Shown here: positions 6,264 through 15,289 of the stretch, piece by piece | How positions within the stretch are numbered: the stretch's first letter is position 1 | Layout of the letters: each line of letters begins with the position of its first letter | Source: an uncultured Alphaproteobacteria bacterium | GTDB lineage: Bacteria; Pseudomonadota; Alphaproteobacteria; Methylaequorales; Methylaequoraceae | Assembly (NCBI GenBank): GCA_902523675.1 | Contig: CABZAL010000005.1 | Span: 6,867 to 70,866, forward strand | Length of the DNA stretch: 64,000 nucleotides | Reading direction: 5' to 3' | Position numbers and translations under genes: made by a program | Notes under the pieces: generated by a model | The model's input: only the letters and a program-made list of their open reading frames with translations | Databases searched by the model: none | Told to the model about the DNA's origin: nothing

Positions 6264-6776
6264 TTACTTGTTTTTAGATATTAAAGTATCCATGTAAGCC
6301 AAAATCACACCACTAATTACAAAAGTAAAATGTATGGCTATGAATAAGATGATCTGTTCTTTCGTGTATTTATCTAAATCGAAAAATACTTTTAAAAGAT
6401 GAATCCCAGATATAGCCACAATTGAGGATACTAATTTAAGTTTTAATCCCTTAAAATCAACTGTTCCCATCCATTCTGGTTTATCCTCGTGGTTATTAAC
6501 ATCGATTTTAGAGACAAAATTTTCATAACCTGAAAATATTACAATTATCAACAAATTACCGGCAAATGATAAATCTATGAGAGTCAGTATAAATAAAATT
6601 AACTCTGTTTCATCAGTACTAAAGTTTAAAACGAAATGAAATATTTCTTTTATAAAAACTACTAATAAAAAAAATAAAGAAATTATTAAGCCAAAATAAA
6701 ATGGTGCAAGTATCCATCTTGACGCAAACATGACTCTTTCAAGAAATTTTTCAAAACTTTTAAGCATATCTTGCAA
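6264..6776 (-). CDS. YqhA/UPF0114 (TIGR00645) family membrane protein
   Basis: FASRWILAPFYFGL, LTLIDLSFAGNLLIIVIFSGYENFVSKID, PEWMGTVDF..LKLKLVSSIVAIS.IHLLK motifs. Confidence 0.85.
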   Translation of the reverse strand: MQDMLKSFEKFLERVMFASRWILAPFYFGLIISLFFLLVVFIKEIFHFVLNFSTDETELILFILTLIDLSFAGNLLIIVIFSGYENFVSKIDVNNHEDKPEWMGTVDFKGLKLKLVSSIVAISGIHLLKVFFDLDKYTKEQIILFIAIHFTFVISGVILAYMDTLISKNK

Positions 6777-6914: not shown

Positions 6915-7020
6915 CAGACCACCTCCTTTATATTGGTTAAAACTAATTATAATTTAGTGTCAAATTTGAAAAAGTCAAAAATAATATTGTATAAACATAA
7001 AAAAATTTTTCATTGATTAA

Positions 7021-7422
7021 CTATGAAACTTCTACATTTTCAATCTGAAATTCTAATTCTTTGAACCCATTCGGAAACTCTTTTTCACTGATCGACATGA
7101 AACCCTCATCATAAAATTTTTGTTGTTGAATTGGTATAAAATTTTCTAACTCTACCATTATTTCATTATCTTGTTGAAACCAAGAAATAAAACAATCTTT
7201 AGCCGATTCAATATCATGAACAACGAGTTTTTTTTTTTGTATATTACAAAAATATTGACTGCCCTCTTCCATAAAATATAAATCAGATTTTTTGATATAG
7301 CTTGGGCATTCACCGCATTGACAATTTTCGACTAATTCTGAATAATGGAATTTTTCCGCTTTAATGAATAGTGAAAAATATATTTTGTAAGTTTTCATTA
7401 ATTTAATTCTACTACAAGGCAT
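7021..7422 (-). CDS. Hypothetical protein with CQCGECP motif
   Basis: ORF track; overlaps or closely follows the stop of the transporter, probably co-transcribed; start may be the later MKTY. Confidence 0.55.
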   Translation of the reverse strand: MPCSRIKLMKTYKIYFSLFIKAEKFHYSELVENCQCGECPSYIKKSDLYFMEEGSQYFCNIQKKKLVVHDIESAKDCFISWFQQDNEIMVELENFIPIQQQKFYDEGFMSISEKEFPNGFKELEFQIENVEVS

Positions 7423-8443
7423 ATTGCAAACCCAATATAATTTTAAAATCCTGTTTCATTTGGATTCTATTATATTTTTCATAAATAGGTTTAATTACTT
7501 CAATAGCAAATCTTTGATTTTTTAAAAAGCTATTCCTATTGATGAAATTAAATCCAAGTCCTAGCAGAACTTTAGTATAACCAATATTTCCAGCATCCAT
7601 TGCAGGGCTCATTCTTGAATTTAGTTGATCGTCTTGTCCTTTCATTTGGTTCAAGTTTTTAAAACTAATTTTAAGAGAGGAACTAAAAAAATGAATAAAA
7701 TTATAAGAAGTCCAAATATTTGTATCCAAAAAATTTCCATACTTATAACCATATTTATTGCTATCTCCTGGTCTAAATTTGAAGAAAAATTGTGCGCCAT
7801 ATTTTATTTTATCAATATTTTTTAATATATTTAGCAGAATGTAAGGATCGAAAGTCCCTGAACCATTCTGCATACTGTAACCCAACTTTTTATTGGAACC
7901 CATTGGGGTTTGATCCTTTTTGCTAATACTACCAGTTGGGAAACTCAAACCAAAACCTAGATGCATTTTCAGATTTTTATTATTTTTAATACCAAACATA
8001 CCACCCAATAAAAGATCCCCAAAACCATGCGAATTAATATTAAATCTTGCACCTCCAGACATTTTCATGCGTTGTTGTGTCATTTCTTTCTGTTGGTAAT
8101 TGCTCATTATTAAAAATGTAAAGTAATCAGATGGTGCGTACATCATACCAAACATATGCATTGACATATTCATTGATACTGGTGCGTTCATATATGATCC
8201 TTTATTGAAAGATGAACCATTTGGATTTATCATAGTATCCTCAATTGAAATTGAAGAAGTTCCATTATTTAACCCACTCATTACCATCGATGATAGCCTG
8301 TATGAGAACATGAATTCATTTTTTTTATGCATGTGATCACTCATTATGCTGATAGGGGCATGATCATCGGCAACAGTAATCTCATCCGAATGAGCATAAT
8401 AACAACTTGATAATATAAATAATGTAGTAATTCTCTTAAACAT
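7412..8443 (-). CDS. Met/His-rich outer-membrane 'transporter' (HAPIxxMxDHMH family), probable metal (Cu/Ni) uptake protein
   Basis: Signal peptide; DDHAPISIMSDHMHKKNEFMFSYR and MNMSMHMFGMMYAPSD motifs; G.GD and FPTGSI..MQNGSGT.D barrel-family motifs; C-terminal LGLQYAL. Confidence 0.7.
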   Translation of the reverse strand: MFKRITTLFILSSCYYAHSDEITVADDHAPISIMSDHMHKKNEFMFSYRLSSMVMSGLNNGTSSISIEDTMINPNGSSFNKGSYMNAPVSMNMSMHMFGMMYAPSDYFTFLIMSNYQQKEMTQQRMKMSGGARFNINSHGFGDLLLGGMFGIKNNKNLKMHLGFGLSFPTGSISKKDQTPMGSNKKLGYSMQNGSGTFDPYILLNILKNIDKIKYGAQFFFKFRPGDSNKYGYKYGNFLDTNIWTSYNFIHFFSSSLKISFKNLNQMKGQDDQLNSRMSPAMDAGNIGYTKVLLGLGFNFINRNSFLKNQRFAIEVIKPIYEKYNRIQMKQDFKIILGLQYAL

Positions 8444-8448
8444 AATGT

Positions 8449-8496
8449 TCCTTTCTAAAAAATTTTAAAATCTAAAGTAAAATTTTTTAGAAGGGA
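8449..8496 (-). promoter_or_regulatory. mRNA stem-loop sequestering the SD of the 7412-8443 gene
   Basis: 15-bp perfect inverted repeat (ttctaaaaaatttta / taaaattttttagaa) extended by two C-G pairs beyond one mismatch; the 3' arm contains AGAAAGGA just before the ATG, the 5' arm is the final codons and stop of the leader ORF. Confidence 0.75.
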
Positions 8497-8789
8497 GGAG
8501 ATTGAGATTTTTCAGGAATATTTAAAAAGAAGTTAGTTTTATTTTTCTTTTTTGATTTATCATCAATTTTAATAAATGTAACAAATATTATATTGGCAGA
8601 ATCTACAACATCATCATGAACTAGATCAAAACAATGTTCAAAACAATTATGTTTTGATGAATCTTCACTCGAAGAACATATGTCATAATTAATTTTATAA
8701 TAAAAATTTTGTAACTGGTTGCTAATAGCGATGTTAGAGCCAAGCAAAAAAAATAATATTATGGTTAAGAAGCTGCTATTTTTTTTCAT
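8487..8789 (-). CDS. CutF/CruR (DUF2946)-like secreted leader protein
   Basis: Signal peptide MKKNSSFLTIILFFLLGSNIAIS, HNCFEHC (CxxxC), C-terminal SQSPPF; lies directly upstream of a metal-transporter-like gene. Confidence 0.65.
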   Translation of the reverse strand: MKKNSSFLTIILFFLLGSNIAISNQLQNFYYKINYDICSSSEDSSKHNCFEHCFDLVHDDVVDSANIIFVTFIKIDDKSKKKNKTNFFLNIPEKSQSPPF

Positions 8790-9139
8790 TTTTTCCAATT
8801 CTTTAAATTACTAGTCACTGTTATATAAGGCAACTCAAATAATAAATTTTAACCAAACTGTTTTCTTAAAGAGAAGAAAAAACAAAAATTCAAAGAAAAT
8901 TTTTGTCATGTGTTTTTCAAAAAATGAGCATTATTTTTTGTGAATATATACTATTTAACAATCACTCCAAACTATGCAAATTAATTTGAGCAGAATAAAA
9001 TTTATGAAAAAAAAATATAGAAATCAACAATTACAAAATTTACAACTTAGTTGAAATAAATTCCAAAAATAAGGATTTTAGATATAATAGATACTATAAA
9101 TAAATTGGTTAAATTATTATAATTATAAAACAATTTAAA

Positions 9140-9898
9140 ATGAGATTTGAATTTGGAAAAAATTGGAAAAAATATTCAAGATTTATTGACAGTAAAAAAA
9201 TTGAAATTGGAAAGGAATCATTAAAAGAATATTTTAACATTGAGAACTTTGAAAACAAAACTTTTTTAGATGTAGGTTGTGGAAGTGGGCTTTTCTCGAT
9301 TTGTGCTACTTCTCTCGGAGCTGATGTAAGATCTTTTGATTACGATGCAGATTCCGTTGATTGTACAAAAAAAGTTTTTAAGACACACATTAAAAAAAAA
9401 GCATTAGTTGAAAAAGGAGATATTTTAGATAAGTCTTTTATTCAAAAACTCGGAAAATTCGACTATGTATATTCATGGGGTGTCCTTCATCATACAGGGA
9501 ATTTAAATACTGCAATGAAAAATATAGATATATTAGTTAAAAAAAAAGGAAAACTTTTTATCTCCATCTACAATAACCAAGGTGCAAAGTCAAAAGCTTG
9601 GGAAAAGATAAAACTTATATACAACAAGTTTTATTTTTTGAGGCCATTATTATTCATCATATTTTTTATTTTTATGAAGTTACCTGAAATTATTTACAAA
9701 ATCATTATAAAGAAAAAAGAATTAAGAGGAATGAATCCTTTCATTGATTTAATAGATTGGATAGGTGGTTATCCATTTGAAACAGCAAAACCAGAAGAAA
9801 TCTTCGATTTTTTTAGAAAGCTTGGGTATTCATTAGAAAAAATCAAAACTGTTAATGGAAAATCAGGTTGTAACGAATATGTTTTTATGAAAGGTTAG
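9140..9898 (+). CDS. Class I SAM-dependent methyltransferase (UbiG-like)
   Basis: RFEFGKNW, FLDVGCGSGLFS, YSWGVLHHTG, DWIGGYPFE motifs. Confidence 0.85.
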   Translation: MRFEFGKNWKKYSRFIDSKKIEIGKESLKEYFNIENFENKTFLDVGCGSGLFSICATSLGADVRSFDYDADSVDCTKKVFKTHIKKKALVEKGDILDKSFIQKLGKFDYVYSWGVLHHTGNLNTAMKNIDILVKKKGKLFISIYNNQGAKSKAWEKIKLIYNKFYFLRPLLFIIFFIFMKLPEIIYKIIIKKKELRGMNPFIDLIDWIGGYPFETAKPEEIFDFFRKLGYSLEKIKTVNGKSGCNEYVFMKG

Positions 9899-13653: not shown

Positions 13654-15289
13654 AAAATTCTAAGAAATTTTCAAAATTATCTAATTTTTCGTTATTTTTT
13701 TTTAATAATTTTTTTAAACTTTTTGAAATGAGATACTCTTTTAAATTTTTAAAATCATAAATATAATCAAAATCACTGGATAAGCCTTTAATATTAACGT
13801 TAAAAGACGGAAACTTTGGAAATTTTTTTGATTTTATTGTAATTTCGTTCGAAACATCAAACCTTTTGGTATTTAAAAAATATTTACCAGCTGAATAGAC
13901 AGTAATATGAGGGCTTTTAAAGGTAAGATTATCAAATTTCAATTCATTATTATTAATTCTAAAATTTGATTTGATTGAATCTATATTACTTTTTTGGTTT
14001 TTTTTTGATAGTTTAAAAATTTCAAAAATATCATTTATTCCAGTAAAATTGTCAATTTTTTTTGAAATTTCCTCTAAGTTTATACCATTCAAATCAGCGT
14101 TTTTAATTTCAAGTTTTCCCATAAGATTCAAATTACTAATTAATGATTGAAAATCATTCTTTAAAAGGATTGATTCAAAGGACGATGATAAGCTGTTTTT
14201 TCCTCCACTAATGTAATACTTTGTTTCTACAAAATGATTTGAAGGCAATGAAAAATCCTCAAGGAATAATACACCTTTTAAACGATTATCTAACTTTGAG
14301 TAATCTGCATTAAATTTTAAAACACCATCGAGATAACTGCTATTAAATTGTTCAATCCTCATAAAATTGTCACTAATAAATGAGTTGAAAGTTACATTTT
14401 TAAAAGTTTGGTTAGTAATTTTCAACTTTTCTATTTTTGCGTTTATATTAATTTTGAAAAAATCAGAAAAAGAATATTTTATTTTTTTTAAAAAATCTTT
14501 TTCTTTGCTTTTCTGCCTATTATTTTGGATTAGTTCTGAGATGTTAAGATTTTTACTTTGCAACAAGCCATTGAATTCAAATGTTCTTCCTTTAATAAAC
14601 AAAACTCCGTTTAAAAAAATTTTTTCTTTCTGATCTAATATTTTTTGTTCAATGCTCATACTTATTTCTTCATAATTTTGAGATTGAGAGATTGCTTTTA
14701 AAGAAAAATTCGAATTAAAATTCTTTAAAAAAAAATTACCGTTAATTTGTTGTCTTGAATTAACAAATGAGAAATTTACTTTTTCTAAATTTTGTTGTCC
14801 AGAATTTGTAAGTATACTTACTATCCCATTTTTAATTTCAATTTTTTCAAATATTCTTATGTGTTGATCTAGAAATTTAGAATTATTTCCTATGTTTACA
14901 TGCAAAAAATAATTATTGTGAATTACGGATTGATCAACTGTTTTAAAATCAAAAGAAACCATAGGATTAAGAAACTTTACATTTTTAAATTTTAAATCTC
15001 CACGCAAAAGATATATCCACTTGGAAGTGATTTGGGTATTAGCTACTTTTACTGACAAATTTTTATCAATAAATGATAGATTATTTAATACAACCTTAGG
15101 ATAAGGAAAAAAGGTTAAATCAATTTTATTGTCAAACCTTATATCTCCAGATATTTTGTTTGAAATATTGTCAGTTATTGAGTTCTTAAAACTCTCAGAA
15201 TCGAAAAAAAAAGAAAAATAAATTATTGGCAGAATTAAAATTGTTACCAAAAACAAAAAAAAAAAACGAATTATCTTCATTAAATTCAA
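13643..15289 (-). CDS. AsmA family protein
   Basis: N-terminal anchor, LTFFPYPKVVL, C-terminal NADLNGINL...FRINNNEL..SAG.Y AsmA-like region. Confidence 0.7.
   Translation of the reverse strand: MNLMKIIRFFFLFLVTILILPIIYFSFFFDSESFKNSITDNISNKISGDIRFDNKIDLTFFPYPKVVLNNLSFIDKNLSVKVANTQITSKWIYLLRGDLKFKNVKFLNPMVSFDFKTVDQSVIHNNYFLHVNIGNNSKFLDQHIRIFEKIEIKNGIVSILTNSGQQNLEKVNFSFVNSRQQINGNFFLKNFNSNFSLKAISQSQNYEEISMSIEQKILDQKEKIFLNGVLFIKGRTFEFNGLLQSKNLNISELIQNNRQKSKEKDFLKKIKYSFSDFFKININAKIEKLKITNQTFKNVTFNSFISDNFMRIEQFNSSYLDGVLKFNADYSKLDNRLKGVLFLEDFSLPSNHFVETKYYISGGKNSLSSSFESILLKNDFQSLISNLNLMGKLEIKNADLNGINLEEISKKIDNFTGINDIFEIFKLSKKNQKSNIDSIKSNFRINNNELKFDNLTFKSPHITVYSAGKYFLNTKRFDVSNEITIKSKKFPKFPSFNVNIKGLSSDFDYIYDFKNLKEYLISKSLKKLLKKNNEKLDNFENFLEFFID

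Follow-up and report, generated by a model that had tools for sequence, protein, structure and literature searches.

A conserved leader-channel gene pair of marine Alphaproteobacteria with the architecture of a nascent-chain switch, probably for copper

The window analysed here is a stretch of 64,000 nucleotides (nt) from the genome assembly GCA_902523675.1 of an uncultured member of the alphaproteobacterial family Methylaequoraceae. Its minus strand carries a two-gene unit composed of a small leader with a putative export signal (100 amino acids; 8487–8789, stop codon included) and a 343-amino-acid outer-membrane channel (7412–8443). Our reading of these sequences is that translation of the exported leader probably controls initiation at the channel gene, and that the pair forms a nascent-chain switch of the type described for CutF of Rhodobacter capsulatus and CruR of Bordetella pertussis, with copper as the probable signal. 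In this mechanism, a ribosome would pause at the end of the leader with Pro-Pro in its P and A sites, while a CxxxC motif ca. 43 residues behind would just have left the exit tunnel, at the Sec translocon or inside it. While paused, the ribosome would cover and unwind one arm of an mRNA hairpin that otherwise hides the channel gene's Shine–Dalgarno (SD) sequence (the anti-SD arm), which would allow a second ribosome to load there. Binding of a metal to the cysteines, most probably of copper, may then alter the duration of the pause and in this way set the output of the channel.

The leader open reading frame (ORF) begins with an ATG at 8789 (an alternative in-frame TTG start lies at 8798) and ends with a stop codon at 8487–8489. 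Its N-terminus, MKKNSSFLTIILFFLLGSNIAIS, resembles an export signal, and by eye the predicted signal of residues 1–23 (8721–8789) shows a basic n-region with KK, a hydrophobic core, and an AxS-type c-region with the boundary AIS/N. A hydrophobic N-terminus is shared by all 20 leaders that we aligned, and the AlphaFold2 (AF2) model of the leader, in which a helix is predicted for residues 5–38, is of low confidence (predicted local distance difference test [pLDDT] 57) except for this N-terminal helix. The cysteine motif C38-x10-C49FEHC53 (8631–8678, with C38 at 8676–8678 and CFEHC at 8631–8645) is followed by a 43-residue spacer (8502–8630), a “ruler” of unconserved sequence and constant length across relatives, which leads to the codons of S97-P98-P99 (UCU CCU CCC; 8493–8501) as a putative ribosome pause site that is invariant in the 20-leader alignment. 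Translation then ends almost immediately, as the C-terminus reads Q-S-P-P-F-stop (8504–8487). An initial annotation of the window had already pointed out an upstream ORF with signal peptide, CFEHC, and C-terminal SQSPPF, and all of these features are present on the minus strand as it had described.

The end of the leader also forms one side of an 18-bp hairpin (8449–8496) that sequesters the SD of the channel gene. The 5' arm (8478–8496) runs from the third base of the P98 codon through the codons of P99 and F100 and the stop codon to 9 nt beyond it, while the 3' arm (8449–8467), across a loop at 8468–8477, contains the SD AGAAAGGA (8449–8456) 5 nt before the ATG at 8443. RNAfold analysis of the minus strand of 8420–8530 confirmed the perfect 15-bp stem that the initial annotation had drawn between the final codons plus stop of the leader and the SD of a downstream transporter: UUCUAAAAAAUUUUA (8492–8478) pairs with UAAAAUUUUUUAGAA (8467–8453), and beyond a 1-nt bulge on each strand the stem is extended by UCC (8496–8494) pairing with GGA (8451–8449). 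This 111-nt stretch has a minimum free energy (MFE) of -19 kcal/mol (z = -3.4); all 200 dinucleotide shuffles were less stable. With an opening energy of 11.6 kcal/mol, the channel SD ranks second among 318 SD-bearing genes of the same genome assembly, for which the median is 2.2 kcal/mol and the 99th percentile 8.7 kcal/mol. Across the family, the loci have a median opening energy of 6.7 kcal/mol compared to 2.0 kcal/mol for 26 neighbouring genes (Mann–Whitney p = 4e-9). A scan of 7000–9200 with Rfam found no riboswitch and only sub-threshold, miRNA-like matches to the hairpin, and no terminator-like site was detected when the gap between leader and channel was scanned for intrinsic terminators. 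The genome-wide screen of opening energies also brought up strongly sequestered SDs on contigs C16 (plus strand, start near 7378; 15.9 kcal/mol) and C9 (plus strand, start near 13957; 10.7 kcal/mol), and these genes may be further translational switches.

Of the 37 genomes of this marine alphaproteobacterial family (single-amplified and metagenome-assembled genomes), 30 contain the leader-channel pair, with channels of ca. 50% identity, and in each of the 32 family loci examined an ORF of about 100 codons directly precedes the channel gene. Since the pair is kept while the flanking genes vary between genera, the conserved unit is the leader plus the channel and not the cargo of a local island. 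The leaders share only 22–34% identity between genera, and in the 20-leader alignment just 6 of about 100 positions are invariant (C38, C49, C53, S97, P98, and P99). A search of 1.84 billion representatives with a leader profile retrieved 69 clusters, all of 47 to 122 amino acids, and across the cluster representatives only the three cysteines and xSPP are largely kept. CxxxC is found in 63 of these 69 sequences, and an equal number end in xxPP followed by 1 to 7 residues; the six that lack either feature are truncated. Within the family, the pattern C-x10-14-CxxxC that links the upstream cysteine to CxxxC is invariant, and CxxxC and the residue before PP are 41–44 amino acids apart in 20 of 20 loci (40–43 amino acids when counted to the position that matches the R of the RAPP motif of CruR) and 41–45 amino acids apart in 56 of 58 representatives. 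Conservation of motif and stem in homologous loci had been proposed as a check by the initial annotation, and both are indeed kept family-wide with this fixed ruler. Its description of QSPP as a variant motif holds for the window itself, but NSPP is the consensus (51 representatives) and QSPP a minority form (4 of 63) next to HSPP (3), TSPP (2), RSPP, NAPP, and NYPP (1 each). A few loci deviate individually: the leader of L048 has NAPP in place of NSPP, L045 has ATA at the position of the channel start codon where L048 has ATG, and at L049 the leader is only 40 amino acids long and the channel gene is split into two matches, which points to a frameshift or to misassembly.

The geometry of the hairpin is conserved as well. 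The 3' end of the leader and the channel SD are paired in the MFE structure of every locus, and in 30 of 32 loci the 5' end of the anti-SD lies between -3 and +16 nt from the first Pro codon. A ribosome footprint reaches roughly 13–15 nt downstream of the P site, so the anti-SD starts inside the mRNA that a ribosome with Pro-Pro in its P and A sites would cover. The anti-SD arm of the relatives consists of the S-P-P codons themselves (UCUCCUCC / GGAGGA) or of the few codons that follow them, and in the window it runs from the Pro98 codon through the stop codon. The two hairpin arms are co-adapted locus by locus: among 21 non-redundant representatives, cognate arm duplexes have a mean energy of -10.5 kcal/mol compared to -7.6 kcal/mol when leader ends are joined with the SD regions of other loci (permutation p = 5e-5), and the arms pair as CUCCU...AGGAG in most loci and as CUCCA...UGGAG in L024 and L046.

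The target gene encodes a predicted 12-strand beta-barrel channel of the outer membrane (COG4313 / Phenol_MetA_deg type), an assignment that draws on Pfam, AF2, and Foldseek and bears out the initial annotation in its expectation that the controlled target is of a different class than in known systems. Its match to PF13557 (Phenol_MetA_deg) is marginal at 23.6 bits for a cutoff of 22, and 7 of 20 relatives match this model. The AF2 model of the channel (pLDDT 82) has FapF (5o65/5o67) and the COG4313 channel Pput2725 (4rl8) as top Foldseek matches with E about 1e-11. The predicted fold resembles both, a 12-strand barrel with an N-terminal segment (template modelling scores of 0.57–0.77), at a sequence identity of only 9–12%. 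Unlike Pput2725 and FapF, the target has dense invariant Met, His, and Asp residues as well as the motif ADSHGPISxMGDHMHKK. The family alignment has 83 invariant columns, many of them Met and His, and the His/Met/Asp motif at the mature N-terminus (8309–8368; DDHAPISIMSDHMHKKNEFM in the window, family consensus ADSHGPISxMGDHMHKKNE) includes the invariant residues D26, H28, D36, H37, and H39. Further along the protein, M91, M93, and M97 are invariant and M95 and H96 nearly so, and these residues alternate on one strand. The N-terminal motif is retained even in homologues of 30–38% identity from other Pseudomonadota. Met-rich ladders and His are typical of Cu(I) sites, and their presence in the channel sequence suggests that it handles Cu(I). 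A need for copper exists in this organism, as the genome encodes a heme-copper oxidase (COX1 present). We rejected the idea that the channel substitutes for missing TonB-dependent transporters, since family genomes have one to four TonB_dep_Rec matches each, with two in the genome of the window. No report in the searchable literature was found to link COG4313, Phenol_MetA_deg, or PF13557 to copper or DUF2946. The channel family is likewise absent from those supplements of the CutF and CruR papers that we examined; it may have been listed before in their larger tables.

Beyond the family, almost all channel homologues with 30–38% identity in other Pseudomonadota have DUF2946-like leaders (PF11162, the family of CruR) upstream. 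In Thalassotalea (L052), the channel gene is preceded by an ORF of 141 amino acids that shows CPIC, a spacer of 44 amino acids, and a C-terminal RAPPLFS directly before the stop codon; it scores 20.9 bits against PF11162, and a hairpin joins its last codons with the channel SD. Among eight RAPP-type upstream ORFs tested, PF11162 is the best Pfam match of seven and the only match of six, with scores of 18.9–29 bits of which two exceed the cutoff. These ORFs have CxxC, about 44 amino acids, and RAPP plus three residues, and their PP region often pairs with the SD. A second channel subfamily (L067–L082; genomes of 1.4–2.9 Mb of a family labelled “same phylum”) has a Cys-rich mature N-terminus (YIGLCCGKCGGNMPMN; Y[IV]GLCCGKCGGNMPMNIPGGG). 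Its leaders carry CxxEC(G/S)CGCH and end in PPP plus 3 to 5 residues, and the PPP codons pair with the channel SD across intergenic regions of 96–142 nt. The cyanobacterial homologue of Lyngbya aestuarii (L053), which has a long N-terminal extension (458–476 amino acids), has no same-strand upstream ORF of at least 40 amino acids. In L062 and L064, an extra domain of ca. 500 amino acids carries the channel domain at its C-terminus, in open frames of over 900 amino acids with a His-rich junction. The leader of the window is thus the positional counterpart of the recognised DUF2946 leaders and has the same motif order and ruler.

A switch of this kind could work in either of two directions. We slightly favour a pause that occurs by default and is relieved by metal, in which case the channel would be made at copper scarcity and serve uptake for cytochrome oxidase. 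Four points are in line with this logic, which is that of CruR: the relatives of the channel have RAPP/CxxC leaders, the habitat is oligotrophic, the module is near-universal in the family, and the channel is passive. It is also possible, though less likely, that metal prolongs the pause, so that the channel would be made in copper excess as in CutF and would serve detoxification; the CxxxC motif, the Sec signal, and the stem as output speak for this second direction.

Several observations weigh against a nascent-chain switch. The only residues named as stall-promoting before PP in a study of diprolyl contexts are Asp and Ala, while SPP is not discussed (PMC4176338). Elongation factor P was found in the three relatives with the most complete genomes but not in the 74%-complete assembly of the window. 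No member of the family leaders (0/20) matches PF11162 even at E<=10, and an hhalign comparison of the leader profile with 30 bona fide DUF2946 proteins from genomes gave a probability of 0.2%. Nothing relevant emerged from Pfam and NCBIfam scans of the leader either, and a search of the genome of the window with PF11162 found no match anywhere. Sequence kinship to DUF2946, as might be expected from the CruR-like label of the initial annotation, is therefore undetectable by Pfam or profile–profile comparison, and we did not assign the leader to DUF2946 on the basis of sequence. Either it has diverged from this family so far that it escapes detection in a genome of such extreme composition, or it is a replacement that arose by convergence. 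At the level of RNA, several relatives have weak hairpins (MFE of -6 to -8 kcal/mol and z of about -1 relative to shuffles), and over 32 loci the pairing probability of the SD was 0.86 compared to 0.79 in dinucleotide shuffles. The difference is small because any run of purines finds weak pairing partners in U-rich sequence. We therefore replaced this measure by the opening energy relative to genome-wide controls and by the comparison of cognate and non-cognate duplexes, which together with the location of the pairing partner are the measures that discriminate for SD sequestration. In our reading, stalling, metal binding, and regulation are deduced from sequence throughout.

One rival explanation is plain translational coupling, in which the hairpin would do no more than tie channel synthesis to leader translation, with the leader as a small periplasmic Cys protein (e.g., a metal-handling partner) and no regulated arrest or sensing, which we consider unlikely. 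Coupling as such would need no arrest because the stop codon lies inside or beside the anti-SD arm and a ribosome terminating there would transiently open the hairpin, and a mature protein could well make use of the conserved cysteines. The leader is also under some purifying selection, with a ratio of nonsynonymous to synonymous substitution rates (dN/dS) of 0.23–0.64 in 9 of 10 close pairs (the closest pair, the window and L021, has 1.2 from few changes). For the channel, the same comparison gives 0.08–0.23; the leader is translated, under loose constraint. The scarcity of invariant positions, the low identity between genera, and the lack of a confident AF2 fold speak against this rival. A spacer of fixed length and free sequence and a C-terminal diproline have no obvious role in a mature protein either, while they match the ruler of CruR (PMC9426467), and the positional counterparts elsewhere are DUF2946 arrest leaders. 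It is hardly credible that the SPP codons are kept solely as an anti-SD (CCUCC) in an RNA-only element whose upstream ORF has no peptide role. UCNCCUCC is complementary to GGAGG, and the Ser and Pro codons do form the anti-SD in about 60% of loci. Yet the Pro codons and the TCN Ser codons are each found in all four forms, and SPP is kept with CCG or CCA codons where the anti-SD lies further downstream, as it does in about 40% of loci, which argues that SPP is conserved as a peptide and not only as a CCUCC anti-SD. The conservation of N/Q at position -1 and of the Cys motif and ruler in frame point in the same direction.

Rho-dependent attenuation as in CruR would act at the level of transcription, and we regard it as highly improbable as the main mechanism here. 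Rho is encoded by all 13 genomes tested, so that a transcriptional component may contribute, the motif spacing is like that of CruR (PMC9426467), and the distant loci L056 and L065 have long, structured intergenic regions of 131–187 nt without clear sequestration of the SD by the leader end. By contrast, the intergenic regions of the 32 family loci are short (24–78 nt after correction of start codons), the spacer of the window is a poor Rho loading site with only 2 C in 43 nt, and the sequestration of the SD is far over the genomic background. Finally, the same switch might respond to a thiophilic or borderline metal other than copper (Zn, Cd, Co, Ni, or Hg), which seems rather unlikely to us. 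CutF-like leaders with other neighbours have been proposed as Ni/Co sensors (PMC9973294). No copper genes are conserved beside the leader-channel module, and in the flanks compared across the family no gene for a copper enzyme or chaperone is linked to it. On the other side, the Met ladders and His residues of the channel are of the kind generally known from Cu(I) sites. The characterised CxxxC/CxxC leaders also respond specifically to copper (PMC9426467, PMC9973294).

The surroundings of the pair are less conserved. Downstream, an ORF of 133 amino acids (7021–7422, minus strand) that overlaps the stop of the channel gene carries CQCGEC and has no family match; it is found in the same genus only and partly in L025, and so lies outside the conserved module. 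It is followed by a UPF0114 (YqhA-like) membrane protein (6264–6776, minus strand; Pfam E 7e-37), a neighbour that otherwise occurs only at L021, the locus of the same genus, and at the family locus L022. Upstream of the leader, promoter-like hexamers can be found at 9084–9151 on the minus strand, but such matches are fewer than in shuffled sequence, so this promoter is a weak candidate only.

Copper control by nascent leader peptides has been described only between 2021 and 2025 and in two model bacteria with CutF and CruR. The pair described here indicates that the switch design persists in AT-rich, streamlined marine genomes beyond Pfam detection, and surveys based on PF11162 would undercount it because the Pfam model misses these leaders. 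With three cysteines, a ruler of ca. 43 amino acids, NSPP, and an 18-bp stem, the leader would be a natural minimal switch that is convenient for dissecting how the signal of a metal bound outside the tunnel reaches the peptidyl-transferase centre. It also ties this class of sensor to a passive 12-strand Met/His barrel, a testable candidate for the poorly known passage of copper across the outer membrane, and the three leader flavours in front of homologous channels offer a comparative system for the evolution of arrest motifs. More tentatively, Met/His-lined barrels of the COG4313 type might be unrecognised and widespread copper channels of Pseudomonadota that are nearly always under the control of arrest leaders of the RAPP type, the PPP type, or, in this AT-rich marine clade, a minimal NSPP type that would have arisen anew or diverged too far to be recognised by sequence. 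If so, leader sensing and SD unmasking would be a general way of tuning copper passage across the outer membrane in oligotrophic ocean bacteria.

Comparison with characterised systems bears out the CutF/CruR-like architecture proposed by the initial annotation, i.e., an exported leader with a Cys motif, a C-terminal diproline, and a stem that overlaps the leader end. CutF, encoded in the cutFOG operon of R. capsulatus, carries a Sec signal, CxxxC with two cysteines in addition, and a C-terminal PPP (PMC9973294, PMC8456105), and a stem that shields the cutO SD is melted by the stalled ribosome (PMC9973294, bioRxiv 10.1101/2025.02.05.636593). The same sources correct the initial annotation on one point, as the CutF motif is PPP and not a RAPP-type end (PMC9973294, bioRxiv 10.1101/2025.02.05.636593). 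Like CutF, the leader of the window is a putatively Sec-exported protein of about 100 amino acids with CxxxC, an extra upstream cysteine, and a proline motif shortly before the stop; the intergenic region behind it is short, and a stem-loop covers the SD of the gene that follows. The two differ in their motif (PPP in CutF and NSPP in the leaders described here), have no detectable sequence similarity, and control a Tat-exported multicopper oxidase and a predicted Sec-exported outer-membrane barrel, respectively. Copper induces the CutF system; the leader described here may respond in either direction.

CruR (Bp2923; DUF2946/PF11162) has CxxC, RAPP, and a GC-rich intergenic region of 162 nt and acts by Rho-dependent termination (PMC9426467), which contradicts the stem-unfolding mechanism attributed to it by the initial annotation. 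Its motif spacer of 45 amino acids (PMC9426467) is close to the about 40–44 amino acids of the leaders described here. In both systems, the upstream ORF encodes an export signal, a Cys motif, and xxPP 1 to 7 residues before the C-terminus. CruR heads an operon for an outer-membrane metal transporter, and homologues of the channel described here carry true DUF2946 leaders. Unlike the barrel channel, the target of CruR is a TonB-dependent transporter, and the leader described here fails the Pfam model. SecM, VemP, and MifM sense translocation force and have the Sec/YidC machinery as their targets. They resemble the proposed switch in that arrest of an exported nascent chain breaks a stem and exposes a downstream SD, but differ in that translocation force rather than metal is sensed and in their arrest motifs and targets. 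All three are secretion-monitoring arrest peptides (bioRxiv 10.1101/2023.09.02.556018). Compared to all these systems, four things are new: the NSPP motif, the failure of the family model to detect the leader, the AT-rich setting, and the class of the target. The proposed logic would be that of CutF, in which a stall melts an SD-shielding stem, combined with the motif spacing of CruR.

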